Part shown: piece by piece, positions 8,213-33,418 of the stretch | How positions within the stretch are numbered: the stretch's first letter is position 1 | Layout: each line of letters starts with the position of its first letter | IMG/VR virus record: IMGVR_UViG_3300042553_000685 | Length of the DNA stretch: 64,000 nucleotides | Reading direction: 5' to 3' (one strand) | Origin: a virus | Position numbers and translations under genes: made by a program | The notes under the pieces: model-generated | Database searches by the model: none | The model's input: only the letters and a program-made list of their open reading frames with translations | Told to the model about the DNA's origin: nothing

Positions 8213-8923
8213 TTATTGTGTAATACTATTCCCAAACGATGAAGAAGAGCTTCCCACAGATAAAGGACGAGTATTGTTTTTGAACTGCTGAACAGATTCA
8301 GGAATATACCGAATACCTTCAGCTACACCCTCCCAACGTTGTGCAGGTACGCGACGACCAGGCATGAAGCCGACGCTGTAATTATCTACCTTGCATCTAG
8401 TTATTTCATATCTGAACTTCGCCCTACGATTACGACTAGCAGCACTATTACTAGGGAACTCTATGCCGCTCTGATTATCGCCATTAGAAGCGATATTCCA
8501 GAAGTCGAGGGATCCTAATCTACGACTATCTGTTCCACTACGAGTTAGTGGATTAGTTACTAACTCAGACGCATTAGCATCGAAGGTAATCTGGAACCGG
8601 GGGCTCCGACCTAGTATTTGATCACGACCAATTTCATTAGTGCCGAACGTGCGGCCCATAAATTCACCATCAACTAAACCTTGTTCTAGTACCCACGCGA
8701 TGTTATATTCCCCGTCTAGATAGACAGGTACGCGTTGGCCTAATTCTAAATAGGTCTCAGTCGAATTTCTAATACTGAGCGTCAGGGACTGGAACTTACC
8801 GAACCAGGCAACCTGTCCGCTACTAGTGTCATTAACCCAGACCTCGAAGTCAAACCCACTAAAGGGATCGAGACCAAAGTTATTGACAGCAGGAGTGAGG
8901 AAAAGAGCATCTTTAGATGACAT
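8213..8923 (-). CDS. Putative tail tube protein (by position)
   Basis: 236-codon ORF immediately downstream of the sheath-like gene and followed by a terminator. Confidence 0.45.
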   Translation of the reverse strand: MSSKDALFLTPAVNNFGLDPFSGFDFEVWVNDTSSGQVAWFGKFQSLTLSIRNSTETYLELGQRVPVYLDGEYNIAWVLEQGLVDGEFMGRTFGTNEIGRDQILGRSPRFQITFDANASELVTNPLTRSGTDSRRLGSLDFWNIASNGDNQSGIEFPSNSAASRNRRAKFRYEITRCKVDNYSVGFMPGRRVPAQRWEGVAEGIRYIPESVQQFKNNTRPLSVGSSSSSFGNSITQ

Positions 8924-8927
8924 TATA

Positions 8928-11252
8928 TTACTCGCCTAAGGGACTGGTTTCTGTGTCGCGGCTAATCGTCACATAGATATAATCCGCGCTATAAAGGGGC
9001 TGGAATTGTAAACTAACGTATAGTTCGCGGCTAAAGTAAGACGCTGTGCTATTATTGCTGCCATCGATGATGGCAGGCCGGAAGCTAACAATGTTGCCAT
9101 TCCGCTTGAGCTCGCCCATAAAGGCATTAAGAGCAGCGGCTATCTGATTACGGACTAAACGACTATTAGGCATAGCCACATAATTCCGTAGGATAGCGTG
9201 CGCCCCCTGCCTAACAACGTCGTGAACCCGGCGTAGATATATACGCTCCCACGCAGGATCAGTAGATAGTGTAACACCACTAGCAAAGCGGTATGTACGG
9301 TCAACTGTATCCAGACTCAGTACCTCTAACCGCGCAGCTGAATAGATGTCCTGATTGCTGCGGCTAGTATAGTTATCCGTATCAGACTCTATGATGTTAA
9401 AGAGGGGCCCGACAAGAGACCGCGCTGCAGGACTGACAAAGAAGTCAATAGCAGCTAATTTACCTGCGTAAACAGCAGCACCAGGCACGCCATAGCGACT
9501 ACTATTAGGTTGGCCGGCGTACGTAAACCAGCCTGCTACCATAACCGCACGGGTGGAGTTGAATCCACGCGTAACACTGGCAGCCAGAGTAGGGGTAGTG
9601 CGCGGAGGAGCGGCTAATACTGCAATACGAAGGCCATCACTATCACTAGCACGTTCGGCTTCAGTAATAAGAGCCTGCTGAACACCTACGTTGGTAGTGC
9701 CCACTAGGAGAATATGCACAGGTTGGTTCTCTAGAGTACGGATGATGCTAACATAGTCATCATTAGTTACAGGAGGCCCGTCGTATCCATTCTCTAGTGT
9801 TACATCCACTAACACATTAGGACCATAAAAGTCCACGTGGGCAGGGTTCTCAACATCAGTCTCACTCTCGTCAGGCGGGGCTAGTCTCAGCGGTGACTGA
9901 CGTACTAGAGCGGCGTCGTAATTAATCGAGTCGATGGACTTAGGTAAGAAGAAGCCTCGGATAAACTTCGAATCGAGGAGTGCATTTAATTCACCTGATT
10001 CGTTTGTATCCCCCAGTTTAACAGTGTAAACTTCATCGGCGAGAGGTGGGTTGAAGGCACTACCATTTAGATCTTGTACAGTAAGGCGAAACTCGCTATT
10101 ATTCACAGGATAGATACTAACCGTAACTTGATTACCCCAGTTACCCTCACTGACTGCCTGGAGGCGCAGGAGGGGGGTACCATTGAAGGTATAGAAATCA
10201 CGGAATGCACTACGAGGACCATCCAATCCGCCCTGGAATGAGGTGAAATGAATAGCGGGATCCGGAATAGTAGTGACTAATGCAGGACTAGTGGTAAAGC
10301 CTCTATTAGCAGTGTTGTCGTTTGCCGTTACGTAGAACGAGAAGCGATTGCTGATAGAACCAGTGAGAGCAGGCTCTAATTGAATGACTACTCCGTTGTC
10401 CTCAACATTACGAGTAATCTCACCAAAGGGCTCCACACCTGCACAGGCACTGATCAGGCTAGTGACAATCTGGTTAGGTAGGTCGCCGCTAAAGATGGGC
10501 ACAGAGACTACATACTTGTTAACTCTAATACTCCAGCTATTACCCTCTACTAGATTGAGGGCCGCACCGACTACAGTACCGAAACGAACGCTGATGTTAT
10601 TACTAGTTAGTGGGATGAGAACGTTACTAGAACTACCTGCACCAGCAGCAATATTAACATCAATATCCGTAGTGACAGCCGCCCAGTTAAGTGGATTCTG
10701 ACCCAGTGGTACAAATTGCCATTTAATAGTAGCTACACCAGCAGCGACATCATCAACGCGAAGGAAATATCGGCCACTGGTAGAACCAGTATACGGGCCC
10801 GTCGCGGCTACTGTCTCTTTACTATTGACTACAGGCGCTACGGCAGTATTAGTGAGCATAGGCCATACTATATCAGCAGGTGCATCCTCGCGAGCAATAA
10901 CCTCTCCCACGAAATTGGTGTGGATATTGAGAGTGTTATTAACTCCCGCTACACCAGAGAATGTGAGGGATGCAGAAGCAGGGCGGCCCCGGCCAGTAAC
11001 TCGTACTAAGGCAATGTTAGCATCATCTTGATTAGCGAATTGATCATATACAGCCTGGTACTGTAATGAACCTGGACTAGTGTCGGAGCCATAGCGATAC
11101 GCAAAGTCCGAGAAGTTACCAATGTAGGTCAGGATGTTAGCCGGCCCTCGATTAAATCGGTCTATGATGGCGATCCGATTCAATACGTTCGGCCGCGGCA
11201 AGGCAAAACCTACATTAGTATCTTGAAATTCTATAAAGGGGGCGCGAGCCAT
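8928..11252 (-). CDS. Putative contractile tail sheath protein
   Basis: 774 codons. The C-terminal part (...AVMVAGWFTYAGQPNSSRYGVPGAAVYAGKLAAIDFFVSPAARSLVGP...) resembles the conserved sheath C-domain pattern (P.GA.AG..A......W.APAG). A tube-sized gene follows. Confidence 0.6.
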   Translation of the reverse strand: MARAPFIEFQDTNVGFALPRPNVLNRIAIIDRFNRGPANILTYIGNFSDFAYRYGSDTSPGSLQYQAVYDQFANQDDANIALVRVTGRGRPASASLTFSGVAGVNNTLNIHTNFVGEVIAREDAPADIVWPMLTNTAVAPVVNSKETVAATGPYTGSTSGRYFLRVDDVAAGVATIKWQFVPLGQNPLNWAAVTTDIDVNIAAGAGSSSNVLIPLTSNNISVRFGTVVGAALNLVEGNSWSIRVNKYVVSVPIFSGDLPNQIVTSLISACAGVEPFGEITRNVEDNGVVIQLEPALTGSISNRFSFYVTANDNTANRGFTTSPALVTTIPDPAIHFTSFQGGLDGPRSAFRDFYTFNGTPLLRLQAVSEGNWGNQVTVSIYPVNNSEFRLTVQDLNGSAFNPPLADEVYTVKLGDTNESGELNALLDSKFIRGFFLPKSIDSINYDAALVRQSPLRLAPPDESETDVENPAHVDFYGPNVLVDVTLENGYDGPPVTNDDYVSIIRTLENQPVHILLVGTTNVGVQQALITEAERASDSDGLRIAVLAAPPRTTPTLAASVTRGFNSTRAVMVAGWFTYAGQPNSSRYGVPGAAVYAGKLAAIDFFVSPAARSLVGPLFNIIESDTDNYTSRSNQDIYSAARLEVLSLDTVDRTYRFASGVTLSTDPAWERIYLRRVHDVVRQGAHAILRNYVAMPNSRLVRNQIAAALNAFMGELKRNGNIVSFRPAIIDGSNNSTASYFSRELYVSLQFQPLYSADYIYVTISRDTETSPLGE

Positions 11253-18500: not shown

Positions 18501-18899
18501 ATGCAATTAGAAAGATTATTGGCTTTAGAGGCTCTAGAGCGACTTCTTGTTCGCCGTATTCGTAATGCGACTATTGAAGATACCTCTCTGGTATTCAACC
18601 TCAATGAGGGGTTGAGTACCAAACCTTATAAAATAGATATAGCTTCCTTACTACAAGGTACGCTCGAGTCTACATATTATAATTACCTGGCCGGCCGCAT
18701 GCTAACTGAGGGCTACACTTATACTGCAGTTGAGGGAGGTGAGATAGTAGAGTCACCTCGTGGTGATATCTATCAAATACATGGCACAGACTGTAGTTGC
18801 CCTCAGCGAGGTTACTGTAAACATCTCATACTGCGAGACTGGCACCTAACATACCGAGCGCGGCAGAATGATCTACGTCATCGCGTAAAACCTAGGTAG
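18501..18899 (+). CDS. SWIM zinc-finger protein
   Basis: CSCPQRGYCKHLI fits the SWIM CxC...CxH signature. ATG 18501 is preceded by aggtagg; the ORF track starts at an upstream TTG at 18477. It is the only plus-strand gene inside the minus-strand head operon. Confidence 0.6.
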   Translation: MQLERLLALEALERLLVRRIRNATIEDTSLVFNLNEGLSTKPYKIDIASLLQGTLESTYYNYLAGRMLTEGYTYTAVEGGEIVESPRGDIYQIHGTDCSCPQRGYCKHLILRDWHLTYRARQNDLRHRVKPR

Positions 18900-20232
18900 A
18901 GCTAATGGCATCGGGTAATCCAGTAATGGAACGTATGTGATCCTTATCTCCATCTACTAGGAAGCCCATGTCATGCATCTGCTTAATGGCATCTATCAGT
19001 GCTGCTAGATCAGTGGCCCTCCCCGGTAAACGAGTTATATAGCCCGTGTTGTTAGCCAGTGGGTATAGTGCAGGATCGAAGTTCAACCTGATTAGATTGC
19101 CTATGACCTGCTCAGTGAAGGCGTGTATCACTGTATCGAATATACTGTTGATCTTACCATCGAAGAGTTCTAGTTGAATCTCACTGGCCCGGCCTGTACC
19201 AAAGGTAGTCTCTCTATTCTGCATCAGTAGATTAGGAATACCCATACCCATTAGCATATTGTTATCGCAGAGTGATATGGCTCTTTCGAATGAGTCGCTG
19301 AAGTTATTACCTGTAGTTAGGGCCCCCACCTGTACCGGCTGCTCCTTACTGAGCTGTGTTAATACTAAACCAGAGTCGGTGCTTAGACGACGGAGTGCGT
19401 CCTCTGCCTGCTCCGCTATAGTAGTGGTTATCTCTGTACCATCGGGGGCCTCCTCTACTACGCCCGTATTACCGGGTGGCACTATTACGTATATGAGAGG
19501 GGTACCATAGCGGTCTAGAGCTATGAGCATCATATCTCGAAAGGCCCGCTTAAAGATAGAGTAGTCTAGCACGCTAGTGAGGCAACTGGTACCCCAGGGA
19601 TTATTACCCTTAGTGTTGTAATTAATGAATAGCCGTTTGTGACTAGGGAGTCGTACATGACTACCTACCACGTCTACTCTCTTAGGGGGGTCTCCTATTC
19701 TATAGGGAGGCAGAGGCACCCAGTAGCCCGACTTGTATTGACTAGCTGTTACTGTATCACCATCTACTATACGGCCATTGTCGTTAGTGATGAGCATGAC
19801 CTGTAGTGGGTGATAATTAACTATGTCATCTAATACCGTAGCCGGCATACTATCTCGCGTGCCGTGGGCGTATATCTGCTCGCTTAGACTGAAGCCATAC
19901 GTCATAATAGACTTCACGCAATGAGATATCCATGTCTTGGCTCTATTGCGTAGTTGGTCATCTATGAAGTTCTTAATGCGTTTATCCCCGTGTTGATAGG
20001 GCCCGACCTTATTAAGTACGCTCAGTGCTATAGAGTCGAGGCCCTGCGCTATGATAGGCTCCGCCTGCGCTGCCTCATCCCAGGCACTCAGCTGCTGATA
20101 GGTAGGCTTGCCTGCTCGTTTATAGCCACCATCCTCAGATAGATAACTAGTGGCTAGGCCTAGGTGCTCCATAGCGTAGATAGTGCGCCGGCGTATTGCT
20201 GGCGTGGTGGTATTACGTACTTCCATATTCAC
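18892..20232 (-). CDS. Putative portal protein
   Basis: 446 codons, upstream of the protease/scaffold and capsid genes. The segment NPWGTSCLTSVLDYSIFKRAFRDMMLIALDRYGTPLIYVIVP resembles portal (DUF935/Mu gp29-like) core patterns. Based on position plus a weak motif. Confidence 0.5.
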   Translation of the reverse strand: MNMEVRNTTTPAIRRRTIYAMEHLGLATSYLSEDGGYKRAGKPTYQQLSAWDEAAQAEPIIAQGLDSIALSVLNKVGPYQHGDKRIKNFIDDQLRNRAKTWISHCVKSIMTYGFSLSEQIYAHGTRDSMPATVLDDIVNYHPLQVMLITNDNGRIVDGDTVTASQYKSGYWVPLPPYRIGDPPKRVDVVGSHVRLPSHKRLFINYNTKGNNPWGTSCLTSVLDYSIFKRAFRDMMLIALDRYGTPLIYVIVPPGNTGVVEEAPDGTEITTTIAEQAEDALRRLSTDSGLVLTQLSKEQPVQVGALTTGNNFSDSFERAISLCDNNMLMGMGIPNLLMQNRETTFGTGRASEIQLELFDGKINSIFDTVIHAFTEQVIGNLIRLNFDPALYPLANNTGYITRLPGRATDLAALIDAIKQMHDMGFLVDGDKDHIRSITGLPDAISST

Positions 20233-20477
20233 CAGAATGAGGGTCTCTTAATATCAGATAGTGGGTTAGAGTTCATATTCTCTAAAGATTTAGTCATTTC
20301 TTCTAGGGATTGCTGTTGTTTCTTATTCTGATTCTGAATATAGTTAGACGCCGCTTGATAAGCGGCCTCCTGCATATATTCGTCTTGCTGAATGAACTCC
20401 TGCAATCCTATACCAGTGACGCTAGCTATTATAACCCACTTCTCTAGCTGATAGTACTTGGTATAGTTCTGCGCCAC
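20229..20477 (-). CDS. Downstream (-1) frame of a candidate frameshift pair; stand-alone start would be GTG 20477
   Basis: This frame is open from 20738 to 20229. The 87 codons between 20738 and 20478 contain no ATG/GTG/TTG (checked by hand). Confidence 0.5.
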   Translation of the reverse strand: MAQNYTKYYQLEKWVIIASVTGIGLQEFIQQDEYMQEAAYQAASNYIQNQNKKQQQSLEEMTKSLENMNSNPLSDIKRPSFW

Positions 20478-20659
20478 CTGAACTACATAGTTATGTTTAA
20501 TAACGGGTAGATAGGGGTCAGGTGGCGGCGGTACTATAAACCTAGCACTAGGGAATATACTGCCGGCAATTTGTAGCAGAGGGTCGGCTATACGCTGGAG
20601 CGCGGCATTCTTACAGAATAACTCAGTGTTTATTAGGTGGAAGTACGTTAGATGAATGT

Positions 20660-21022
20660 TTAGATGGCTTGCTTCGATTTTGTAGTCGTAGCTCGCGTGG
20701 AAACACCCATAAGCTTTTTTGCCTCCGCTTGGGCCTTCTCACGCCCTTTATCGTCAATGAGATATAGGGTACTGAATACCTCCATGAAGTATTGTTGGTC
20801 CTCGACACACCAGTCGTCGGTGATACCATCGGGTTCGTAGTCGTAGGCATCGCTATCCAGAACCCGGCCATTGATGTTAACAATACAACGGATAGCTAGT
20901 ACTTCTTCAGGTAATAGGCCGCACTCCTTATTATAATGCTTGATCATCTCGCGACGGTCGTGAACCAGGGGCGGCTTGAAGCTAACCTCGAATTGGCCCT
21001 TCGGTAATGTGATAGTGTGCAT
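20660..21022 (-). CDS. Hypothetical protein, zero-frame product of the candidate frameshift pair
   Basis: 120-codon ORF. First gene of the minus-strand virion operon in this window. Confidence 0.6.
   Translation of the reverse strand: MHTITLPKGQFEVSFKPPLVHDRREMIKHYNKECGLLPEEVLAIRCIVNINGRVLDSDAYDYEPDGITDDWCVEDQQYFMEVFSTLYLIDDKGREKAQAEAKKLMGVSTRATTTKSKQAI
20714..20720 (-). promoter_or_regulatory. Candidate -1 slippery heptamer A_AAA_AAG
   Basis: Minus strand reads GGAGG C A AAA AAG. The zero frame of ORF 20660..21022 reads GCA AAA AAG. The -1 frame is open on both sides of it. Confidence 0.5.
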
Positions 21023-21078: not shown

Positions 21079-24000
21079 ATGAGGCCACTGCCCGCTAAAG
21101 TAGGCAGTTTTTCAGCTATAGCTCTATTTAATAGGTTTTGTACTCTACTGATGGATATCAATAGCTCACTATTCTCTAGTAATCGATTTAATGACAGTGC
21201 TCGTTGGAATGCTCTCTACCGTATTCCTGAGGATACGCGCAGTAGATTATTACAGGGCTATAATCCTCTAGAAGTATTAATGGACCCTAACTTTATACCG
21301 CCTGGTACCGACGCCTCTATGGAGATGGTGCTAGCTGATGCTTTCTATGATAGGGTAGTTGATACTAGTAGTAGTCGAGCTGCTATCTCGAGTCTGTGGG
21401 ATAGTATGGAGGGCCCCGCTCGTCAGGAGTACTTCGAATACATGGCAGGTATGGGGGGTACAGCTACTCCTGCCCGTACCCAGACCGATGATATGCTTAA
21501 TTGGATGGCCCAGCGAGATCAGCTCACTATGCGGTCTAACCTAGAGGGCATAGACGATGAACGCCGCCTACTACTAGAGAATCGCTCTAGCATGTTGGAT
21601 CTAATATCTGATGATGGTTATAATGTACGGCCCGGCTTACTACCTATTGCCGCGCTAGTAGATACAGCAGAGAGAGAACTGCGTATAGACATTTATCAGT
21701 TCCAGAATGAGCGCGCTATAGATATGGTGGGTGAAGCTGTAGAGAGAATGGCTGGTAGTGGCCAGGGCGGCCGTGTGGTAGTTCGTATGGCTGCTCCATC
21801 TGAGACTGATGGAGACTCTCGTAAGAATTATGATATCCTGGGCCCCAACATTATGTTTTATAAGCGGCTGTCTTATCTACGGGACCGCTTCGGGAGTAAT
21901 GTAGATATAGATATCCAATGGGCTGATAGACGTAATCACCCTAAGTTCTTCGTTAGTGATAGGGCCGCTCTCATAGGTACGATGAACGTGACGCGGCCAC
22001 TAGGACAATCGCTAGAACAGGCGGGCTCTAATGTAGAGTTCACGCGGACTATACGCACTAACCTGACCTATAGCCAAATACAGGATGCCGATAGGGGTAT
22101 ACTGCCTGACATTATAACGCGAGCTGATAAGTTATACCTACAGGCCCGTGATGTTATGGATAGATTAGATGGTGGCGATAGAGTTCTATTCACGGGGCAG
22201 GATAGTATAGGTGGTGCTGGTGATGTTAATACTGCTCTACGCCGCCATATAGGTGAGCTCATTAATAGGCCTACTATCGATGGTAAAACGGGCCGCCTCT
22301 ATATGGTACTCAATCAGGTGTTCCTGCTCAAGCACGATAAGACCCTGATGGCAAGCCAGCTTAAAGGAGAGATGGGAGAGAATCCTGAGCATGAGAGAAC
22401 ACTATCGGGTTACCAGGCATACATGCAAGCCAGAGAGCAGGAATACTCTAAGCTCCAGGCTAATGTATTAGATCTGGTTATAGAGGGCCGCGCTCGTATA
22501 GGAGTAGATGTACATACCTATCGAGAGGATGTGCAGGACCCTATGAGCCGCTTACTACTGAGCAACCAGAAACTAGCTGCTGAGTTATCTCAATCTAATT
22601 ATGACGTGGCCCGCTGGATTAAGGAAAGCCGGGGTACTGATGTTAGTGATATGGCTAACGTGCTGAGCACGTATGGTTTCTATAGTGGAGATCTCGAAGG
22701 CCGGCAGCGTATGGCCCGACAATTATTAGCTATAGCTAGCGGTAATATAGAGCCGACCGCAGTACCGCGCAGCCACGTTAAGGCATACCTGGCAACCTAC
22801 GAGAATGATGTCATAAATCAAGGGGCCGGGCCTGGCATGCAGAATATAAACAATCGTCAGGCCTTCGATATCCTGGGTGGTAGTCAGGGATCTAGTAACT
22901 ATGGCCTTAATTCTCTGGCAGATAATGATGATCCCCTGAGCCGCCGACTCGTTAACCAGGAGATCAATATAATTTACGATAGGGTGGGTGGGACAAGCCT
23001 TCTCAGTCTCTCTGATGAGGAGCGTGATGAGGAGAATAGGGAATACGCGCGGGCCTTCTATAAATTACAGAGCTCCCTGGGAATACAACGAATAGGTGAG
23101 ACTCCTTATATTGGTCGGGACCGTAGGTCTATGTATGGTAATAGGGTAGATAGAGGAGCCATACTGGACCTAATCAGCGAAATAGAGAGAGTTAATGCGG
23201 CTGTCGGCTCTGAGATTATAGGCGTACAGCGAGACTACGATGGTCTTAACCTAGAGGGCGCTACTCTAACACTCAATAAGGGCCTACCTACTCAGCGTGT
23301 ATATAGATGGGGTGCCTATAAGAACGCTAGTGGACGGGGGCCCGCCGCCTTCATAGATATAAGTGGGGGTCGTCAGATAGAGTCAGCTGAGCTATTCAAT
23401 ACTGGCACAATGCGTATGGAGCTGGCTATGGAACGTGATGGTCTTGGTGTGGGTCTGGATCCTCGTAGACGCCTGCGCCTTAATCCACTGGATGTAGTAG
23501 TGGGTCTTATGAGCTCTATTGCGTTAGAGAGTGAGACTACTCGTTTAGTGCGGGCCCCACTTATGGAGTACCAGAGGTACTATAGCCCTGATAATATACG
23601 CGCCGCCCAGGCCGTACAGCGCGACCCCGGCGCTCAGTATCAGAGTGCCATAAACTTCTTCGAGAAGCTATTGGGTGTGAGTGGTCTTGACCTAACCACA
23701 GACGAGGGTACTAGTAGAGTACAGCAGGGCCTCAGTAACCTGACCTCCTTGTTCTACTCTAGTGACCCTGATCTAGATCGTATACGAGACCTAGCGAGTA
23801 TATCTCGTATTGATAGCCGCCGTAGAGTGGCCTTCGAGGAACTATCTAACATATTTCTTACCTATGCGCGGTCTGTAGATGAGAGAGGCCTACCCATAAT
23901 AGACCTAGAGGCACACCGTAGAGGGGCCCTTAATCTTGCCGCTAATAAGCTATATGAGATTATGGATCAGGGCCCTATGTTCGCTGATGTGTTATTCAAG

Positions 24001-27000
24001 TTTATCGAATCCCAGAATGATAGCCGTTATAAGACTGATGTGCGCGAGAGGTTAAAGGAGATACATGATAGTGCATTCGCCGCGTTCCTTACTCCTACAC
24101 AGGCTCGTAATTATGGTTCTACACAAGCAAGTAATCGTTTACTGGCCTATGGCTTTGGTCAGGGTAGGCAGCCCGCTGGTATATCTATAGTTAATGCTGC
24201 ACTACGTCGTATTAAGGCTAATGAGACTGCCTTTAGTAATCTGAGTGCCTTTGCTTATACTGCTAGCCCACTGCCTATAGGTCCGGTATCTGACCTTGGT
24301 GTAGGCGATGACTTCCTCTTTGTACGAGTTGCTGAAGGTAATATAGACTCTACGGCTACTGATGAGAGCCAGTACTTTACTGGCTATAGTAATGTGCTAC
24401 CTCTATCTCGCCGTGCCACTGCCAGTGAGGTCTTCGACCTATCCATCATACGCAGTACTGGTGTGGGGGATATCATACGGCGAGATGAGCTGAGCGAATA
24501 CATGAAGGCAGTGAGTCATTTGGGTATAGACCGCTCCCTGCTAGAGGCAGAGTTTGATGCCCGCGGCGATAACCTACTCCGGTTCTTCTTTGATCCTAAT
24601 AAGCCGGATCAGGTGCCTCAGCGTCTTAAGAACGTGATTGGTATGCGCCCGCTCATGGATATAAGCGAGGGTTATACCCAGGTATTGGAGTTAGTTAGTC
24701 CCACTAATACTGGTAAGGTCATACCTGAGTTGACCCCCGTTAGGTATCGAGCCCGTTACGGAGGTAGCGATGTAGATGTACTGCAGGGCAGTATGTATCA
24801 GGACGCATACCTAGCTGACCTGCGCGCCGGGTTAGATGCACGTGGACTAGATAGTAGTATCGTAGATGATAGCTATCGCTATGGTGCTATATTCAGTGGT
24901 AGAATATCTCGCTTTATGAGTAGTGAGGCGGCTGTAGAATTAGAGGCTATACGGTATGAATTAGCCGACCGCCTGGGTATCGATAGTGAGGATATACCCA
25001 CTGAGGATGATAGCGTACTGGCCGAGCTATTCCGCGCTACTATAGTGCAATCTCAACTCTTCGCTAGTAGAGAGCGTGGATTGATAGGCTCTGGACGGGC
25101 CCGCCCTACTGTTATGATTATGGCACTGGAGGGAGCCTATAGTGACTACGCGTATGCTAACCCTCTACATAGGGTAAGACGCGGCTTCCTAGATCAGGCT
25201 ACTAAGAGTAGTAAGGCTAGTCTATTAGGACGAGACTGGACATTCGATAATGTACTAGTGAGTAGCGATGACCGTATTGTATTCGATGAGAGAGAGCAGC
25301 GCTACTATCTACTAGATAGAGAGGGGCGTCGTAAGCAGGCTATCACTAGTCGTAGTGAGATGCGCGTGTTCCTAGACCAGATAGAGAGTACATCTCGTAA
25401 TCCTAATATGGGGGCCGCTATGGCTACTAGTGCCGCAGCCGGTATACGCGGCGAGTACGCTATTGAGCAGCTACTACAGGTTAGTAGGCTGACTGGTAGC
25501 GATGCTACTAATGAAGTGCAGGTGCAGATACAATTCCTACGCACTCTACTTGAGGGTGGCTCTCGACGGGTAGAGGCAGAGCGCGGTCTGGCTAAGATAG
25601 TCCCTGTGTTCCTGAGCGAGGATATTATGCGTAGTGAGGTGTTCCCCACTATACAGCAAGGGGGCTATCATAGTGCCCTCGAGATAGAGGACATCCAGTA
25701 TATAATCAGCCCTACTAACCTGAAGAGCTACGCATTCAACCACGGGGCTACTCTACTTACTTATAATGGCGGGGAGCTATTCCGTCGGGGGGTACTAGAA
25801 CGGAATGATCAGCAGATAGCGGCCGCTCTCCTTTCCATAACTGATTCGCGTCTCTTTAGTAATAATAGCAATATCAATATAGACAGTGTCTATATAGAGA
25901 TAGCACAGTTGGCAGCGCAGGGGCGGCTCGGTAATTACTATCGTGACCTCTATATGTCTACTATGCTGGAACTTATGCGGAGTGATAAGCTAGGAGATGG
26001 CTCCCCTCATCTCGAAATAGGTAGGAAGCTAGTACGCGGGGGTGATGGTGCTATTAATAGACTACAGAGTCCTGTTCTAGGGGCCATTGATATATCAGAG
26101 ATAATGACAGCCCTGCGTAGTGGAACTAGTAGCGGGGCATTATCCGATAAGGTAGGTCTGATAGTAGATGCAGCAGATGCAGCGCGCAGGGGTTATGTAG
26201 ATACTGGGGCTATGGGCCGCGGCTTTGAGCGCGCTGCTATAGCCGGTAATCTAGAGATTATGATGCAGCTCATGTCGCTTAATAATACCCTAGAGCTCAA
26301 GACTACGCCAGTGACTGGTAGCGATAGTATATCTCGTCATGCGTATGCGGCTATGAGCGCTATAGCAGGTGTTACGCAGGCAGATGAGATAAGCGTAGGC
26401 CAGGAGAACGTGGCCGTTATGCTCGATAGATTGAGTAATTACTCTCGCTATGTAGTGCTATATAATGCCGTGATGGGTAGTAGCTCTAAGGTGCCATTGA
26501 GTAGTAAGGACACTGCGCAACTAGAAATGCAGCATATAGTATCTAGTCCCTTCATGGCTAACGTGGATAAATTCAAGCGTGATGGTAGTGTTGATAGTAT
26601 GCGTAGGGCTATCCTTGGCGTCATGAAGATGGCCATAGGGGCAGACCCCAATAAGATAGCGGTGGATGACATCCCTATGTATGACCTGGCTAGTCTGGAC
26701 TTCCACGCTAACTCTACGTTGGGAGAAATACTACTAGGGGCCTATAACGATGCGCGGGCCCCATTAAGCGATATAACTAATCTACGCGAACGATACAGGC
26801 AGTTCCACACTGCCTTGTCTCTACTCGAGAGTGCCAGTGATACTGACATGGTGTCATATACTAGAGGGTCGGGCCTCGATATTACTAATGTTACTCATAC
26901 TATACTTGATGAGATAGCGACATGGATGGGGCAACCTGCTGGGACTGATAGAGATACTCTGCGTAATGTAGTGCGCCAGTCACTTCGTGTCCTGAAGAAT

Positions 27001-30000
27001 GATATATATGCCCATGCGTCTCGCTGGCGTCTAGCAGGGGATAAGGTACTGGGTGTAGAGGCTACTGAAGCTACCGTGCAGTCAATGGGCCAGAGGGGTC
27101 TTCGTCGTATAGCTTATGAGTTCCCCTCCTTCCGTATAGAGGGGAATAACGTTGTATTCAATACAACTATTAAGGATAGGGGATTTATCCTGAGTCCTGA
27201 GGACGTGAGGATAGCAGGTATCCAGTTCGGTAGCCACGAGAATGAGATAGCTGCTGCTACGGTAGATAAGTGGATTATGCTGGCCCCCGGTAGTGCAGTA
27301 CGCGATATCTTCGAGAAGGTGGCCATTGAGTCTGGCTCGAGGACTACTGTTGAACTGGAGGGCCTCAGTGACTTCCAGATACAGGAGTTGACTCGGTTCC
27401 AGGAACTCAACAACACTTATGAGGCCCGCGTTTATAATGACCTGGCGAGCGCATATCTGCAGTCTATCACTGGTAATAAGATAGGCGTGACAGGTACTAC
27501 TGGTGTGGGGGCCGCTAGCTGGTATGTACCTGTGCGCGGCGCCGTACTAGCAGAGGCCACTATGGAGCGCTTCGGTACGCGAGGTAGTCAGACACGAGAG
27601 GAGATACTTACTAGATTAGGGGACCATCTTAAGAATAACCTGTCTGTTATTGGCCAGTCAGGTGATAAGAGAATTGGTCGTAGGTTAATACAACAGCAGA
27701 TATACGCTATAACTGAGGGCCTCAGTATAGCGGGCATGTATGGGCTGGAGGCAATAGTAGATAAAAGTAAGAACTTCCAGAGCAAAGCGGCCGGTATAAG
27801 AAAACTGGCTCCTGATTCACAGGCAGCTGAATACGCTCAACTAGAGATAGAAATTAAAGTTGAGATGGATAGATTCAGTAGCATGAAATTCAGCGGTAGC
27901 GGGGATTCTCTGATATCTACTCTAGGTGAAGCCGAGATGGGCACAATACTAGAATCTCTGCCTGGAGCTGAAACTCATAAGTATAGAGATCTGGGTCACT
28001 TACCTGTTATTATCTCCGGGCTCATGATAGGTAGTCATGGCCCGTCCCGCTCTATCATACCTGATAATATGCGTATCTACATTGACACTAATGCATTAGG
28101 TAATAGGTTTGATAACCTGGATCTACTACAGGGCCGCATACGTAAGAATCCCATAGACCTATCCTTCTTCAGTGATACGCGTGGTAAGGATGGTGCTGAG
28201 ATGCTGAATATATTCTCTACTAGACTAGATAGTCTAGAGAGAACTATTAATGCCGTGACCTCTGCTGTAGATACGTATTTAGAAGGTAAGAGCCCCCGGG
28301 GCACTGATTTACATAATAGAGGCGTGGCTCTCATAGCTCAGTATAGGAAGCTGGTAGATAACGCAAACGCCGCCTATGCAGTGGAACTAGATACAGTAAT
28401 GGCTAATCGTGCAGCGCGCGATTCATTATTCATAATGAATAGTACTCTGCAGGCTGATATGAGTATGTTCTTCACTGAGCTGGAGTTAACGAGAGCCTGG
28501 ATTCAACGTAGCCCGCCCCCTGGGAACACCCATCTCGATAAGCTGGTGTTCGGCTTAGATACACTCAATAGTATTAATAACATATACCGGGACCTAACTG
28601 GCAGTGGCTTTAACTTCTTTGATGATACTCGTAATAAGTCGTTGACTCTACTTAATCCTATTAGCTTTATAACTAGTAACCTAGGGGACTTCGATGGGGA
28701 TACCTTCAGCGCTATATTCTTCAATTACTCTCAAATGAAGTTGCAGCGCGATGATATGCTGGAACGAGCTAAGGAACGGCGGGAGATGGCATCTCAGGCC
28801 GCTGATCCCGCTAAGCGTACCATTCTAGAGAAGCAAGCTAATGACCTAGATATGCGCGCCAGTGCTTTACTGGATACTATACAGCAGGTAACCACTAATG
28901 CTAATTGGAATGAGTATACCGACTCAGTGTATAGCTGGGTAGCGGGCTATATGAAATTAGATAAGGGTATGCTGGAACAGCGAGGTATAGAACATGCCCT
29001 GGTATTAGTAGAACAGTCCCGCGGTCTCTTTGGTATGATGGAGGACGTATACGCGCGTATACAGCCGGCCCATGAGCCCCTATTAGAATTAATACAGCAG
29101 AGCAGAACTGATAATGCAGTTGATATAGTTAATAGATTATCTACCTCTACAGACCAGAACATACTAACCGATCTCGTTAATAACCCTGATACGGGGCCAT
29201 TCGTGCGGGCTAGTCTACATGATATCCTGAGCGCTACAGGTAATGATCAAGAAGAGAAGGCCTATGACTTCCTGCATAAACTAACTGCTGTTAATGCCCG
29301 CGATAATCTCAGCAAGTACATGAAGCGCGCTGATGGTAGTGTCATGAGCGGCGGCCAATTCGATATGATGCAGAAGGTACTGGGCCAGGCAGGTAGTGTA
29401 ATCCTCGGTAAGACGTATAACACTACCGTGGGTATGCTATACGAGCGCTCCCCTATCATGGCTGTGTCTCACGCACTAGAGAATAGCCCGGCTCTACAGG
29501 ATGACATGCGCCGTATACTAATCGATCAGGGTATGGCAGGAGGCATGAGCGCGAGTGATGCTAACCTAGAGGCCGATAGTAAGATAGTGGATATACAGAG
29601 ACTGGCTCGCCAGAGTAGAACAGAGGTAGGCGAGGTAGGCACATTCCTGCAAGAGATACAACAAATGCTACGGGACGCTATTAAGCCTAAGATGGGGGGT
29701 GCTGAGTTCCTAGAGAACTTATCGCAGTACCATAAGCGCTTTGTAGATGCTGTCGATGATGTGGAGCGCCAGCGTGTAGTAGATGATATGAGTAGACTAC
29801 TACCATCTATAACTCCTCTATTTAAGTTAGATGCGTATATAGGAGCTCATAAAGAATTACTGGCATCAGCTACTAATGATGCCCAGGACTCTAAGATTAA
29901 TGATCTGCTGACTAAGCTATCCATTGGAGAAACTGAGCAGTTAGATTTATCTCGTCGATTGAGCGTACTGCGAAGAGATGAGATAGGTACCCATAGCCGC

Positions 30001-31767
30001 GCCCTCATAGCCAGTTATCAGCTACGTCAGGACCTAGTAGGTATGACGGCTGTATTCGCCTTCGAGCGGGCTATGCCAACCGATAAGGCAGGTAACCCCA
30101 TTAGCTCTGGTAGAGGCCTAGCAGAGAGTGTAGAGACCTACATAAATAGTGAGCCCGCGCGGGCCGCTCAGATAGATGCTCTCATAGCCGGCGGCATCAC
30201 TAATGGCCTCACCGAGATGGAGATAGAAGTAGAAGAGTTTCAGAACTTCACTCGTGACGTAATAGGAGATAAGCGCTTCCAGGATATGGGAGCGGATACT
30301 AAGCGTATATTAGCTATGAACTTCCTACGTAGTAGGGAGAGTGCATCACTCTGGGCTAATATTGATGGTAGTAAACTACTGCGCTTCGCTATTAATGATA
30401 GTACCCGCTCCACACTATACGGAGGACAACTAGAGGATGTACTTGGTCAGGATCTGATTACTGCCGCTGGTGACCTTACTGGCTCAGGAGCTAGTCCGCT
30501 GGTTAGATCACTGTTACAGGCTGTATCGGCCGGGAAGATAAACGAGCCTGAGCAGGTAACACGGGCTCTCGAGTCTCTTATGGATACCTTCACTCACGCT
30601 GATGGTAAGCGCTATGAAATAGCAGACATCTTTAGCGTATTACTCAATAGCGGTACCCCTAGCCCAGCTGATAAGGAGATAGCAGAGTTTATTCAGAAGA
30701 CAGTTCTCACAGATGAGACAGCCACTAGTCGATTAGTTACTTATGTTCGCGCTACAGCGCTAGGTCAACAGGTAGATACAGCCGATAGACTAGTAGAAGA
30801 GCTACGGGACTATGAGAGTCGTGACGTCGATACGCGCTATATAAAACTGCTACAGGATATGGGTGTCGCTCCAGATAGGGCTAAGGAGTTATCAGCTCGT
30901 CGGCGCGACTATCTACTGGCCGGCTCACCCCCTGATGTGGACCCACTGGATCCTCGCCCGCGACCAGATCGCCCCCTCTTACGCGTAGTAGATGATCTAC
31001 CTATTCTTAACAATACTGCCGGTAATCTAATGGATGTACTTCTATTCCCCTTATTAGCGTTGGCAGGAGATATGATTAGTAGTGGCGGAGCCCGCCCCGA
31101 GGCAATGCAGCAGACTATGGGTAATATGCTAGGCGCTATGGCCTACGTAAGCGCCCCAGCAGGTAACCAGATGGGACGTTTCGCTGCAGGTACTCTGATG
31201 AGTATGGGATTCAAGGGCCGCTTAGCAGGTCAACTACACGAGGACTATACAATTGGTGTCGGTATGCTATTAGCACAGGAGATAGCCTTTGGCGCAACAG
31301 CTCAACTCGCAGGCCGCTATATCATCAACCCATTCGTAGAGAAGACACTCGGTAAGGCTCCCACAATAGACTCTGACCCATTCGCGGGCCTGCGTAATGT
31401 AGCTAGCAACGTCATCACGGGGGCATTGAGCCTCGTATCAGCAGGCTTCGTAAATAAATTACTCCATCGTGGGCTAGAGGTCAGTATGCAGCGTAGTGTA
31501 GCCCCCGTGGCTCTAGACGCTGTTAGTGCCGGTATACGCGCTACTCAAGAAGCTATTAATCAGGCTCGCATGGAACGAGAGGATAATGCTGAAACCGAGG
31601 TCGTAGATGACGCGGGCTCCCCTGTTGAGTTCTTCGTACAAACTATATTCAATGGTGATGAATACGACACCTATGACGCCCTCTATATGAGTGACCTAAC
31701 ATTAGATCGTCCTAATAGTATGGCCTATCGAGATGAGAGCGAGAGTTACTCTATGGATCTGGTTTAA
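21079..31767 (+). CDS. Giant multidomain protein: HKD/PLD motif + beta-prime-like double-psi-barrel (DFDGD) motif + hydrophobic Gly-rich C-terminus
   Basis: Uninterrupted 3,562-codon ORF (alternative start ATG 21151). HPKFFVSDRAALIGTMNVT at 21937-21993 fits HxK(x)4D(x)6G(S/T)xN. QRSPPPGNTHL...LLNPISFITSNLGDFDGDTF lies at 28504-28710. The C-terminus has LLFPLLALAGDMISSGG...GALSLVSAGFV. Confidence 0.85.
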   Translation: MRPLPAKVGSFSAIALFNRFCTLLMDINSSLFSSNRFNDSARWNALYRIPEDTRSRLLQGYNPLEVLMDPNFIPPGTDASMEMVLADAFYDRVVDTSSSRAAISSLWDSMEGPARQEYFEYMAGMGGTATPARTQTDDMLNWMAQRDQLTMRSNLEGIDDERRLLLENRSSMLDLISDDGYNVRPGLLPIAALVDTAERELRIDIYQFQNERAIDMVGEAVERMAGSGQGGRVVVRMAAPSETDGDSRKNYDILGPNIMFYKRLSYLRDRFGSNVDIDIQWADRRNHPKFFVSDRAALIGTMNVTRPLGQSLEQAGSNVEFTRTIRTNLTYSQIQDADRGILPDIITRADKLYLQARDVMDRLDGGDRVLFTGQDSIGGAGDVNTALRRHIGELINRPTIDGKTGRLYMVLNQVFLLKHDKTLMASQLKGEMGENPEHERTLSGYQAYMQAREQEYSKLQANVLDLVIEGRARIGVDVHTYREDVQDPMSRLLLSNQKLAAELSQSNYDVARWIKESRGTDVSDMANVLSTYGFYSGDLEGRQRMARQLLAIASGNIEPTAVPRSHVKAYLATYENDVINQGAGPGMQNINNRQAFDILGGSQGSSNYGLNSLADNDDPLSRRLVNQEINIIYDRVGGTSLLSLSDEERDEENREYARAFYKLQSSLGIQRIGETPYIGRDRRSMYGNRVDRGAILDLISEIERVNAAVGSEIIGVQRDYDGLNLEGATLTLNKGLPTQRVYRWGAYKNASGRGPAAFIDISGGRQIESAELFNTGTMRMELAMERDGLGVGLDPRRRLRLNPLDVVVGLMSSIALESETTRLVRAPLMEYQRYYSPDNIRAAQAVQRDPGAQYQSAINFFEKLLGVSGLDLTTDEGTSRVQQGLSNLTSLFYSSDPDLDRIRDLASISRIDSRRRVAFEELSNIFLTYARSVDERGLPIIDLEAHRRGALNLAANKLYEIMDQGPMFADVLFKFIESQNDSRYKTDVRERLKEIHDSAFAAFLTPTQARNYGSTQASNRLLAYGFGQGRQPAGISIVNAALRRIKANETAFSNLSAFAYTASPLPIGPVSDLGVGDDFLFVRVAEGNIDSTATDESQYFTGYSNVLPLSRRATASEVFDLSIIRSTGVGDIIRRDELSEYMKAVSHLGIDRSLLEAEFDARGDNLLRFFFDPNKPDQVPQRLKNVIGMRPLMDISEGYTQVLELVSPTNTGKVIPELTPVRYRARYGGSDVDVLQGSMYQDAYLADLRAGLDARGLDSSIVDDSYRYGAIFSGRISRFMSSEAAVELEAIRYELADRLGIDSEDIPTEDDSVLAELFRATIVQSQLFASRERGLIGSGRARPTVMIMALEGAYSDYAYANPLHRVRRGFLDQATKSSKASLLGRDWTFDNVLVSSDDRIVFDEREQRYYLLDREGRRKQAITSRSEMRVFLDQIESTSRNPNMGAAMATSAAAGIRGEYAIEQLLQVSRLTGSDATNEVQVQIQFLRTLLEGGSRRVEAERGLAKIVPVFLSEDIMRSEVFPTIQQGGYHSALEIEDIQYIISPTNLKSYAFNHGATLLTYNGGELFRRGVLERNDQQIAAALLSITDSRLFSNNSNINIDSVYIEIAQLAAQGRLGNYYRDLYMSTMLELMRSDKLGDGSPHLEIGRKLVRGGDGAINRLQSPVLGAIDISEIMTALRSGTSSGALSDKVGLIVDAADAARRGYVDTGAMGRGFERAAIAGNLEIMMQLMSLNNTLELKTTPVTGSDSISRHAYAAMSAIAGVTQADEISVGQENVAVMLDRLSNYSRYVVLYNAVMGSSSKVPLSSKDTAQLEMQHIVSSPFMANVDKFKRDGSVDSMRRAILGVMKMAIGADPNKIAVDDIPMYDLASLDFHANSTLGEILLGAYNDARAPLSDITNLRERYRQFHTALSLLESASDTDMVSYTRGSGLDITNVTHTILDEIATWMGQPAGTDRDTLRNVVRQSLRVLKNDIYAHASRWRLAGDKVLGVEATEATVQSMGQRGLRRIAYEFPSFRIEGNNVVFNTTIKDRGFILSPEDVRIAGIQFGSHENEIAAATVDKWIMLAPGSAVRDIFEKVAIESGSRTTVELEGLSDFQIQELTRFQELNNTYEARVYNDLASAYLQSITGNKIGVTGTTGVGAASWYVPVRGAVLAEATMERFGTRGSQTREEILTRLGDHLKNNLSVIGQSGDKRIGRRLIQQQIYAITEGLSIAGMYGLEAIVDKSKNFQSKAAGIRKLAPDSQAAEYAQLEIEIKVEMDRFSSMKFSGSGDSLISTLGEAEMGTILESLPGAETHKYRDLGHLPVIISGLMIGSHGPSRSIIPDNMRIYIDTNALGNRFDNLDLLQGRIRKNPIDLSFFSDTRGKDGAEMLNIFSTRLDSLERTINAVTSAVDTYLEGKSPRGTDLHNRGVALIAQYRKLVDNANAAYAVELDTVMANRAARDSLFIMNSTLQADMSMFFTELELTRAWIQRSPPPGNTHLDKLVFGLDTLNSINNIYRDLTGSGFNFFDDTRNKSLTLLNPISFITSNLGDFDGDTFSAIFFNYSQMKLQRDDMLERAKERREMASQAADPAKRTILEKQANDLDMRASALLDTIQQVTTNANWNEYTDSVYSWVAGYMKLDKGMLEQRGIEHALVLVEQSRGLFGMMEDVYARIQPAHEPLLELIQQSRTDNAVDIVNRLSTSTDQNILTDLVNNPDTGPFVRASLHDILSATGNDQEEKAYDFLHKLTAVNARDNLSKYMKRADGSVMSGGQFDMMQKVLGQAGSVILGKTYNTTVGMLYERSPIMAVSHALENSPALQDDMRRILIDQGMAGGMSASDANLEADSKIVDIQRLARQSRTEVGEVGTFLQEIQQMLRDAIKPKMGGAEFLENLSQYHKRFVDAVDDVERQRVVDDMSRLLPSITPLFKLDAYIGAHKELLASATNDAQDSKINDLLTKLSIGETEQLDLSRRLSVLRRDEIGTHSRALIASYQLRQDLVGMTAVFAFERAMPTDKAGNPISSGRGLAESVETYINSEPARAAQIDALIAGGITNGLTEMEIEVEEFQNFTRDVIGDKRFQDMGADTKRILAMNFLRSRESASLWANIDGSKLLRFAINDSTRSTLYGGQLEDVLGQDLITAAGDLTGSGASPLVRSLLQAVSAGKINEPEQVTRALESLMDTFTHADGKRYEIADIFSVLLNSGTPSPADKEIAEFIQKTVLTDETATSRLVTYVRATALGQQVDTADRLVEELRDYESRDVDTRYIKLLQDMGVAPDRAKELSARRRDYLLAGSPPDVDPLDPRPRPDRPLLRVVDDLPILNNTAGNLMDVLLFPLLALAGDMISSGGARPEAMQQTMGNMLGAMAYVSAPAGNQMGRFAAGTLMSMGFKGRLAGQLHEDYTIGVGMLLAQEIAFGATAQLAGRYIINPFVEKTLGKAPTIDSDPFAGLRNVASNVITGALSLVSAGFVNKLLHRGLEVSMQRSVAPVALDAVSAGIRATQEAINQARMEREDNAETEVVDDAGSPVEFFVQTIFNGDEYDTYDALYMSDLTLDRPNSMAYRDESESYSMDLV
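21087..21150 (+). promoter_or_regulatory. Hairpin + TTTTTC element upstream of ATG 21151 (weak variant of the early cassette)
   Basis: actgcc (21087-21092) pairs with ggcagt (21103-21108), followed by tttttcagctatagctctatttaatagg. It lies inside the 5' extension of the giant ORF and argues for a start at 21151 (MDINSS...). Confidence 0.35.
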
Positions 31768-32026: not shown

Positions 32027-32283
32027 GCTAATTGAGTAGGACTTATGTGAACATTAAATTCTACTACGCCGTGCTCTATTAGCATGGCGCATATATATCC
32101 TATATTATCCGCTATATCATCTTCTATAGCTAGTACTGCCTCGTATGGTTCTAACTTCTCTACTATAATATTGTCCTCCCCCGCTGTCTGTAGCCAACCA
32201 AAGGCATCCTCTCCTACTGTATGTGACCAATCAGACCAATCAAGGGACTGATGCTGTGAGAATGTAATTGATATATAAATCAA
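32020..32283 (-). CDS. Hypothetical acidic protein
   Basis: 87-codon ORF with a TTG start in a TTGA overlap with the upstream stop. Confidence 0.45.
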   Translation of the reverse strand: MIYISITFSQHQSLDWSDWSHTVGEDAFGWLQTAGEDNIIVEKLEPYEAVLAIEDDIADNIGYICAMLIEHGVVEFNVHISPTQLAW

Positions 32284-32528
32284 CGTATAACTCCTGATTT
32301 CTTAAGGTAGTGTCCTAAGTAAACATATAGTAGCTTAAGGTGCTGAAGATAGGTACGGTTAACTCCGCGTAGTAATCTCTTACTTATTCTAATCCTAAGG
32401 ATATCTATATCAGCTGGTGTATCTAAGTAATATAAGCGTAGGAGCTGGTGTATGTCCTCTGGCTCCAGCTCCTCTAACTTCACCTTATCTAGTGGCGCTA
32501 GCTTATCTAGTAGTGTTAGCTTGTCCAT
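32280..32528 (-). CDS. Hypothetical protein
   Basis: I prefer ATG 32528 (MDKLTLLDKL...) over the track's TTG at 32552. Confidence 0.45.
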   Translation of the reverse strand: MDKLTLLDKLAPLDKVKLEELEPEDIHQLLRLYYLDTPADIDILRIRISKRLLRGVNRTYLQHLKLLYVYLGHYLKKSGVIR

Positions 32529-33418
32529 GATCCATTTCCCTGGCGAGCCCAATAATTATCTACTAATGGGGCTGTATCCCCACCGTTATTCCAGAAGTTC
32601 TGCGGCATACCACTCCTATTGGGGGGTAATAATCTGGTCGCTAGACTAGAGCCTACAGGGTGCTGTAGTATATCGCTCTCTCCTGAGTGATTTATCTCGG
32701 GACTGAAGCGAGAGAATAGATACTCTCCCCAAAACTCCACGGTTACGGTAGAGGGGGCCCCTAGTAATAATTCTAGTAGTTTAATACGTATAATAGGCCA
32801 GTGCAATAAGAATATACCGCTGACTACCTGGGCCGGCCCATCAAGAGTCTGTAGTATCTCTACCGTGTGAGATACGGGGGGATCTACGACTACACGGGCG
32901 GCCACCCTCTTACCTACATTGACTAGAGGTAGTACATAGGGTGTAGGAGGAAAGGTACCCTGCTCTTGTCCTAGTGATGGCCAATCAACGGGGCGCTGCC
33001 ATACCAGCGTATTCACACGCTTAGGTCTATAGTGCTTCTCCTGCCTATACGTATTAATACGCTTCTGCCACTGCAGGAAATCACTATCACTGGGCGGGCC
33101 CATATTATAGGGATTAGACACTGAGCCATAGTATACGTCCTCGTAGAAGGGGCGTATGAGTCTATAGTAGTGATCTGCTTCATATACACGAGAATATTGG
33201 CCCAGGCTGACCATATCTAATCGTACGAGATCTGTCTCGTTGAAGCGTATCTCGTGATATCGTCTACTATACACGCGGGCCCCCTGTGTGGTAACCTGCT
33301 GCTCTCCTACTACCCATTCCTCCTCCAATTCACTATTGAACTGCTGTATGACGGCATTAGTAGTAGTGGGGGGTGCGCTTATGGTGGCAGGCTGTGGATC
33401 TCTATTAAATGTAAGCAT
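32516..33418 (-). CDS. Hypothetical protein
   Basis: 300-codon ORF. Its ATG overlaps the PAAR gene stop. Confidence 0.55.
   Translation of the reverse strand: MLTFNRDPQPATISAPPTTTNAVIQQFNSELEEEWVVGEQQVTTQGARVYSRRYHEIRFNETDLVRLDMVSLGQYSRVYEADHYYRLIRPFYEDVYYGSVSNPYNMGPPSDSDFLQWQKRINTYRQEKHYRPKRVNTLVWQRPVDWPSLGQEQGTFPPTPYVLPLVNVGKRVAARVVVDPPVSHTVEILQTLDGPAQVVSGIFLLHWPIIRIKLLELLLGAPSTVTVEFWGEYLFSRFSPEINHSGESDILQHPVGSSLATRLLPPNRSGMPQNFWNNGGDTAPLVDNYWARQGNGSWTS

Follow-up and report, generated by a model that had tools for sequence, protein, structure and literature searches.

A probable programmed −1 frameshift joining gp081 and gp082 in Ma-LMM01-type Microcystis phages

The viral record IMGVR_UViG_3300042553_000685 of IMG/VR, a 64,000-nt stretch of DNA that we call the window, carries two adjacent open reading frames (ORFs) on its minus strand, the second in the −1 frame of the first, and a slippery heptamer close to the first one's 3′ end. 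ORF1 (20660..21022, minus strand) encodes a 120-aa homolog of gp081 of Microcystis phage Ma-LMM01. ORF2 contains gp082, annotated as an 82-codon ORF with a GTG start at 20477 (20477..20229, minus strand). The region is 97–98% identical to Microcystis phages Ma-LMM01, MaMV-DC, MaMV-DH01 and others, and judged by this identity the window is from a Ma-LMM01-type Microcystis myophage. We present the evidence bearing on whether gp081 and gp082 are one recoded gene, and on what its products may do.

Probable shift site and −1 frame in the window

The heptamer A_AAA_AAG (20714..20720, minus strand) stands in the X_XXY_YYZ phase of ORF1, where the zero frame reads GCG GAG GCA AAA AAG CTT and the codons GCA AAA AAG encode A101, K102 and K103. 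The sequence GGAGG (20726..20722) lies 1 nt upstream of it. The −1 frame is open from 20738 to a TGA at 20231..20229, and after a slip (20229..20720, minus strand) it would run for 161 sense codons, 20714 to 20232, before that stop. A first-pass annotation, made from the sequence alone, had given the ORF1 frame, the heptamer, the GGAGG and the open −1 frame, and all were re-derived at the same positions; a start-codon census likewise agrees with its statement that 87 codons ahead of 20477 lack ATG, GTG and TTG, the GTG at 20477 being the first such codon in the −1 frame. Its size for the fusion needed a small change: the 161 residues from the −1 frame stood, and ORF1 contributes 103 residues (M1 to K103), not about 102, for a predicted total of 264 aa. 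The predicted junction reads ...AEAKK/AYGCFH..., and the predicted tryptic peptide past ...AEAKK is AYGCFHASYDYK.

The −1 frame translation (P0002) was searched by HMMER against 1.8 billion cluster representatives, yielding 18 homologs. The full-length ones, near-identical gp082 aside, have 102–150 aa and 27–41% identity to P0002. Alignments of the distant homologs begin at query residues 55–74, which is 14–33 residues upstream of the annotated GTG (residue 88), and share the motif RF..PP.DPDLP.IK.NWV, ARFIVPPPPDPYLPVIKHNYV in the window, wholly within the supposed intergenic region. Because distant homologs align into it, we read the start-less gap as coding, in line with the first-pass reading of a slip, and the annotated GTG start of gp082 as wrong.

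The −1 frame product would have two parts. The linker (20553..20713, minus strand) had been annotated as the 3′ end of ORF1 plus an intergenic gap, and contains no ATG, GTG or TTG in the window. The C-terminal domain (20232..20552, minus strand), which we call T-like, is conserved and predicted to be all-helical, with HMMER matches that extend into the gap; it begins about 25 codons upstream of GTG 20477, at the motif RFIVPPPPDPYLPVIKHNYV. In this phage the domain lacks a canonical start codon of its own. AlphaFold2, run on the family alignment, gave a predicted local distance difference test score (pLDDT) above 90 from about 25 codons 5′ of the GTG to near the C-terminus (model residues ~60–150), and below 55 for the approximately 55 residues between the heptamer and this domain.

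Two oddities in the records concern gp082. It is without any annotation in MaMV-DC (KF356199), and a metagenome gene call for it, P0003, reads the TGA through as W into the portal start region, which looks like a code-4 gene-call artefact on a short contig.

The window's 49 long ORFs (17,830 codons) hold in-phase A_AAA_AAG only twice, and the copy at 20720..20714 has by far the longer open −1 frame (161 codons). The other copy (63634-63640) is in a gene at 63234-63752 (plus strand) whose protein has no Pfam match. It reads TGC ATA AAA AAG CGC at codon 133 of 172, its −1 frame is open for 61 codons, reaching about 22 past the stop of its own ORF, and it may be a chance occurrence. A different heptamer, G_GGA_AAT (32534-32540), is in phase 8 codons before the stop of a gene at 32516-33418 (minus strand); its −1 frame continues for 84 codons without a stop and enters the small ORF that follows (32280-32552). 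As a slippery site it is not of the classic bacterial type. No other slippery-heptamer and −1 frame signature was found in the window's tail module.

Conservation in divergent relatives

The comparison set held 12 loci, namely the window and 11 distinct divergent metagenomic lineages (contigs encoding distant homologs). Pairwise identity of their ORF1 proteins is just 29–49% (median 36%), a divergence at which synonymous sites are saturated. The close relatives, nine from GenBank and eight from IMG/VR that are 96–100% identical, all keep the signal, which carries no weight.

Gene order is the same in all 11 relatives: a giant gene on the opposite strand, then ORF1, ORF2 and a Mu-type portal gene, with ORF2 in the −1 frame of ORF1 each time. 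Each relative also has a slippery heptamer in phase at the homologous codons, at the end of a conserved ...A-K-K-L/M motif, and no stop in the −1 frame before ORF2; conservation of these two features in related phages was a check that the first-pass annotation had suggested. Nine relatives carry A_AAA_AAG, L029 has A_AAA_AAA, and L025, with residues A-K-N, has A_AAA_AAC. The GC-rich L030 (residues L-G-K) carries G_GGA_AAG, the same as the lambda G/GT site. From local codon usage, GCA AAA AAG would be expected to encode Ala-Lys-Lys in about 5% of lineages.

Pooled over the 12 loci, the −1 frame has 141 stops in the 1331 codons of ORF1 upstream of the heptamer (10.6%), none in the 328 codons between the heptamer and the ORF1 stop, and none in the 583 codons that lead from the heptamer up to where ORF2 is called to start; the +1 frame, our control, has 25/316 and 57/571 over the latter two intervals. 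The nearest upstream −1 stop falls 1–10 codons before the heptamer at every one of the 12 loci, and the frame is then open through ORF2. The linker of the relatives, always open and predicted to be disordered, varies in sequence and in length (20–79 codons to the called ORF2 start, depending on lineage), the pattern expected of a tether that needs only an open frame. Judged from these counts, we see no way to account for the arrangement of stops and frames unless translation passes from ORF1 to the −1 frame at the heptamer.

If ORF1 and ORF2 were instead separate genes, the heptamer would merely encode the conserved Ala-Lys-Lys, and ORF2 would start at an ATG or GTG in the relatives and at a non-canonical codon in the window (ATA 20591, CTG 20579, ATT 20570 or ATA 20558), or else at the annotated GTG 20477 to give a truncated protein. 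Several observations fit this account and weigh against recoding. In all 11 relatives an ATG or GTG that lacks a Shine-Dalgarno (SD) sequence follows the ORF1 stop ahead of the conserved domain, and there ORF2 might also be produced on its own. A late promoter predicted by BPROM was assigned to gp082 by Morimoto et al. (PMC5780444, supplement); it maps inside the coding linker (window ~20642-20607, minus strand; −35 TTCCAC, −10 box within AGTTATTCTGTAAGAAT), and its transcripts, if it is real, would lack any canonical start for the full domain. Gap variation among strains 97–99% identical falls on third, first and second codon positions as 5:3:3, which shows no clear bias and is uninformative.

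Folding of the window and of the 12 loci also found no convincing stimulatory RNA element. A weak candidate hairpin lies downstream of the site (20652..20710, minus strand), its 5′ arm AUGGGUGUUU placed 4 nt past the heptamer and its 3′ arm being AAACAUUCAU. Folding z-scores in the window are −0.34 for 136 nt and −1.12 for the 55-nt downstream tract, and for the 55-nt downstream tracts of all 12 loci they range from +0.71 to −2.70 (mean about −0.6), marginally better than shuffles. A hairpin with its 5′ arm from UGGG, about 4 nt past the heptamer, recurs in roughly half of the 12 loci, which is not significant. GGAGG was rejected as a stimulator by its 1-nt spacing and its absence from the relatives. 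The first-pass label 'dnaX-type' is thus apt for the heptamer A_AAA_AAG and not for its surroundings, which have neither a conserved upstream SD nor a convincing downstream stem-loop. Slipping on A_AAA_AAG is strongest in hosts that have no tRNA-Lys with the CUU anticodon. Heptamers ending in A_AAG are listed as highly shift-prone, and lambda G-T frameshifting is low-level, with a molar ratio of 30:1 (Atkins et al., PMC5009743); a low, unstimulated slip rate here would therefore fit the function proposed below.

The account by separate genes, which we hold to be very improbable, leaves unexplained why ORF2 is in the −1 frame at 12 of 12 loci, why the ORF1 overlap is free of −1 stops (0/328, against 10.6% upstream), and why the −1 frame opens just before the heptamer every time. 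It likewise leaves unexplained that the synonymous choices GCA AAA AAG are kept, with G_GGA_AAG appearing where the residues change. In the window it also faces the 87 codons without a canonical start, about 25 of which encode conserved domain.

Transcriptional slippage could also yield this fusion, if RNA polymerase inserted an extra A while copying the A-run: the protein sequence would be identical, and 11 of the 12 lineages have a run of six or seven A's. Runs of six A's are short for efficient slippage. In L030, GGGAAAG has no long enough homopolymer, yet it is a classic ribosomal X_XXY_YYZ site, and every lineage keeps the heptamer in one phase with respect to the ORF1 frame, a feature that matters to ribosomes and not to the polymerase. 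These two facts point to tandem tRNA slippage rather than polymerase stuttering, and we regard the transcriptional route as most unlikely. We consider it highly probable, from the conserved heptamer and frames, that the programmed −1 frameshift at 20720..20714 is real.

Among the GenBank and RefSeq records examined none joins the two ORFs, no homolog was found with ORF1 and ORF2 fused in a single ORF, and full-text literature searches on Ma-LMM01 or Microcystis turned up no account of a frameshift or a tail assembly chaperone. One candidate for such a fusion, the 246-aa P0030 (L030:4001-4741), was rejected; its ORF1 domain is tandemly duplicated, and the −1 frame ORF2 is kept. The ORF1 homologs P0025, P0026 and P0032 are on contigs of 230–256 kb, by whose lengths the recoded family reaches into jumbo-sized phages.

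Predicted products and their possible role

In the mechanism that we infer (the ribosomal slippage itself, the product ratio, the chaperone role and its clients alike), most ribosomes would read ORF1 to its own stop and make the 120-aa protein (~13 kDa), and a fraction would slip back one base on A_AAA_AAG, their P- and A-site tRNAs re-pairing in tandem. The slipped ribosomes would read the 161 codons of the −1 frame and add a disordered linker and the conserved helical domain, giving a long form of 264 aa (~29 kDa) that has residues 1–103 in common with the short one. Because no ATG, GTG or TTG precedes the C-terminal domain, it seems that in this lineage the complete domain can be reached by the slip alone, barring a non-canonical start. 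The N-terminal domain common to both forms, whose predicted fold resembles that of tail assembly chaperones (TACs), would bind a long protein involved in the tail or in ejection; the domain made only by frameshifting would bring in a second partner; and how often ribosomes slip would fix the proportion of short to long form.

The ORF1 protein, the zero-frame product that we call G-like, was modeled with AlphaFold2 at a mean pLDDT of 83.7. Residues 1–106 are predicted to be folded, followed 3′ of the shift site by a T/S-rich disordered tail, and the slip at K102/K103 falls at the end of the last helix (91–106); in the model of the −1 frame part the linker is disordered and the C-terminal domain confident. 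VIA-align, run against 48,161 PDB chains, matched the ORF1 model to YqbN (3klu, Z 6.4), the HK97 TAC (2ob9, Z 5.2), 5ir0 (Z 5.0) and 3fgx (Z 4.5), all others being below 4. YqbN is a chaperone of the XkdN type, its gene standing between those for tube and tape measure in a Bacillus subtilis prophage. Foldseek also gave 2ob9 as the best PDB match, a weak one (E 0.78). The BFVD matches include many tail assembly or tape measure chaperones, together with T4-like baseplate hub assembly proteins of 226–271 aa (E 0.007–0.5). A structure search of the ESM Atlas led to PF12322 T4_baseplate (template modeling score, TM, 0.60) and Phage_TAC_7 (TM 0.56), and the closest named language-model clusters are Phage_TAC_1 and Phage_TAC_2 (score 0.90). 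These leads from the model are individually weak and all converge on one class, TACs and T4-type hub assembly proteins, so that the first-pass likening of the locus to the tail-chaperone G/GT pair gains backing from the predicted fold. A structure search with the C-terminal domain gave generic helix-loop-helix and coiled-coil matches only, the gp082 homolog aside.

We moderately favor a G/GT-like assembly chaperone pair as the role of the two products. Taken as a whole, the reading that gp081 and gp082 are one recoded gene whose paired products act like lambda gpG and gpGT strikes us as fairly probable. Several points tell against the chaperone role. The TAC matches found by VIA-align stand 1–2 Z units above unrelated chains and below the level of a safe match. 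No TAC model was matched by any of 24 family members, either in Pfam (E <= 5) or in PHROGs (E <= 0.1); the sole profile match of the ORF1 family is phrog_32670, of unknown function, it belongs to no Pfam family, and the ORF1 profile matched no PDB sequence. By these searches the family is a sequence orphan. The pair is moreover flanked by gp080 and the portal gene rather than by the genes for tube and tape measure, and a tape measure gene was not recognized in Ma-LMM01 by the Pfam models tried. The complete Ma-LMM01 genome has no match to the Pfam models of two tape measure protein (TMP) families, to PF10109 (TAC) or to PF12322 T4_baseplate.

The neighborhood agrees with the first-pass placement of the pair at the head of an operon, upstream of a portal-like gene. 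That gene, gp083 (18892..20232, minus strand), is a Mu-type portal gene (PF06074 Portal_Mu, E 1.5e-26), although it is labeled 'tail protein' in RefSeq (NC_008562). Its start (GTG 20232 or ATG 20226) overlaps or abuts the TGA of the −1 frame, an arrangement that would allow translational coupling. On the other side is the giant gene gp080 (21079..31767, plus strand; 3,562 aa), divergent from ORF1 and 56 nt from its start. The pair thus heads the portal-capsid operon and is about 9 kb from the sheath gene (8928-11252) and the putative tube gene gp092 (8213-8923), whose protein matched no PDB sequence. An uncharacterized 623-aa gene, gp093, comes after the putative tube gene. In the baseplate region a 397-aa protein (3525-4718, minus strand) has a lysozyme-like N-terminal part and an M23 peptidase domain (PF01551, E 1.9e-33); lysozyme-like and M23-type domains of this sort are found at the end of the tape measure protein in many phages. 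Three of the divergent relatives have a ferritin-family gene (PF00210) on the opposite strand, two or three genes 3′ of the portal gene (L015:5890-6381, L018:6361-6396, L019:4306-4341).

This setting bears on a further alternative, in which the frameshift is real and the pair serves head or portal assembly, or packaging or ejection of the giant protein, and is not a tail (tape measure) chaperone. The products would then be a new functional class of recoded gene reusing a TAC-like fold. In its favor are the position in front of the portal gene, with the stop overlapping the portal start, the 56-nt distance from the giant gene, which neighbors the pair in every lineage, and the ~9 kb to the sheath and tube genes, together with the lack of sequence membership in TAC families, fold matches of just Z 5–6.4 and a C-terminal domain without an informative fold match. 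Against it, all structural and language-model leads go to TACs and T4-type hub assembly proteins, G/GT is matched in the size ratio, in a slip located where the folded domain ends and in the disordered linker, and no other TAC candidate was found in the phage. We judge a non-tail role to be rather unlikely and retain the G/GT-like chaperone pair as the preferred reading.

Besides the portal gene, the only neighbor conserved in all lineages is the giant gene, which is present in every relative whose contig reaches far enough and encodes 3,514–4,634 aa where complete. We propose gp080 as a candidate client of the chaperone pair. A more specific hypothesis, which we put forward as speculative and doubtful, is that the pair is the dedicated chaperone of the gp080-family protein (3,500–4,600 aa), itself a tape measure or ejected tail-lumen protein of contractile-tailed cyanophages. 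A precedent for a giant tail-lumen protein with enzyme domains is gp96 of Thermus phage P23-45, in which a virion RNA polymerase is joined to a tape measure protein (PMC10770324), and gp080 might be a protein of this type. With its ~800-nm tail P23-45 is a siphovirus, unlike the contractile-tailed phage here, and for gp080 the searches run (Pfam; PHROGs with the whole protein and six chunks; one Atlas search) gave no match to a TMP or other family. If the hypothesis is true, the trio of giant protein, chaperone pair and portal would be a loading module for an enzyme-bearing ruler protein. A chaperone pair would in any case provide an experimental handle on the giant gene, its clients being amenable to pull-down.

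If the frameshift is accepted, all Ma-LMM01-type (Fukuivirus) records need correcting: gp081 and gp082 would be one gene, the 'intergenic' 182 nt would be coding and the GTG start of gp082 would be wrong. The recoded assembly genes known from tailed phages would be joined by a family that is deeply conserved and an orphan by sequence, and it would follow that a G/GT-type device can sit outside the tail module. With a second domain that has no start codon of its own in this lineage, the fusion is cleanly testable.

Comparison with known recoded and assembly genes

The tau/gamma gene dnaX of E. coli has the identical heptamer A_AAA_AAG in the same phase. It has an SD-like element ~10 nt upstream and a strong stem-loop ~6 nt downstream, whereas here GGAGG is 1 nt away and there is no strong hairpin. 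The outcome differs as well: the −1 frame of dnaX ends after one codon to give a shorter product, and the −1 frame here would add 161 residues.

The T4-type hub assembly proteins (gp26/gp51 class, PF12322) have an N-terminal domain that can be superposed on the ORF1 model (BFVD probability 1.0, root-mean-square deviation 3–4 Å over ~87–90 columns; Atlas TM 0.60). Their length of 226–271 aa is close to that of the predicted 264-aa fusion. They differ in being single unshifted proteins, and the PF12322 profile has no match in the Ma-LMM01 genome.

The TACs of myoviruses are P2 gpE/gpE+E′, Mu gp41/gp42 (Pfam Phage_TAC_7), PBSX XkdN and YqbN of the skin element (3klu), beside which we set the HK97 TAC (2ob9). 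They share with the present pair a contractile-tailed phage and a −1 slip, probable here, in a known or putative chaperone gene, and the set of YqbN, HK97 and Phage_TAC_7 provides the best structural matches of the ORF1 model. The differences are the missing sequence-profile connection, Z-scores of just 5–6.4 and the other gene position.

The closest likeness is to lambda gpG/gpGT and the conserved −1 frameshift of TAC genes (Levin 1993; Xu, Hendrix & Duda 2004, 2013, 2014, summarized in Atkins et al. 2016, PMC5009743). In lambda the N-terminal domain is folded, the slip comes at its last helix, and past a disordered linker stands a second domain that ribosomes reach only by slipping (PMC5009743). 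Like lambda G, ORF1 is a small upstream ORF with a probable slip near its 3′ end on an A_AAG-ending heptamer, no strong RNA stimulator evident and a model whose best fold matches, of modest score, are TACs; lambda uses G_GGA_AAG, as does the relative L030. A G/GT pair has a short form of ~90–150 aa and a long form about twice that size with the N-terminal domain shared, the slip coming at the end of the folded domain, and the predicted products here (120 and 264 aa) are of these dimensions. The pair departs from lambda in its neighbors, a giant divergent gene and the portal gene in place of the tube or major tail gene and the tape measure gene, and in matching no known TAC sequence family. The sequence anatomy of a G/GT pair, whose two products are here predicted ones, is nonetheless present and conserved in 12 of 12 lineages. 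As a mechanism, frameshifting of this sort is already known. What is new is the family, where it lies in the genome and the giant gene with which it is partnered.

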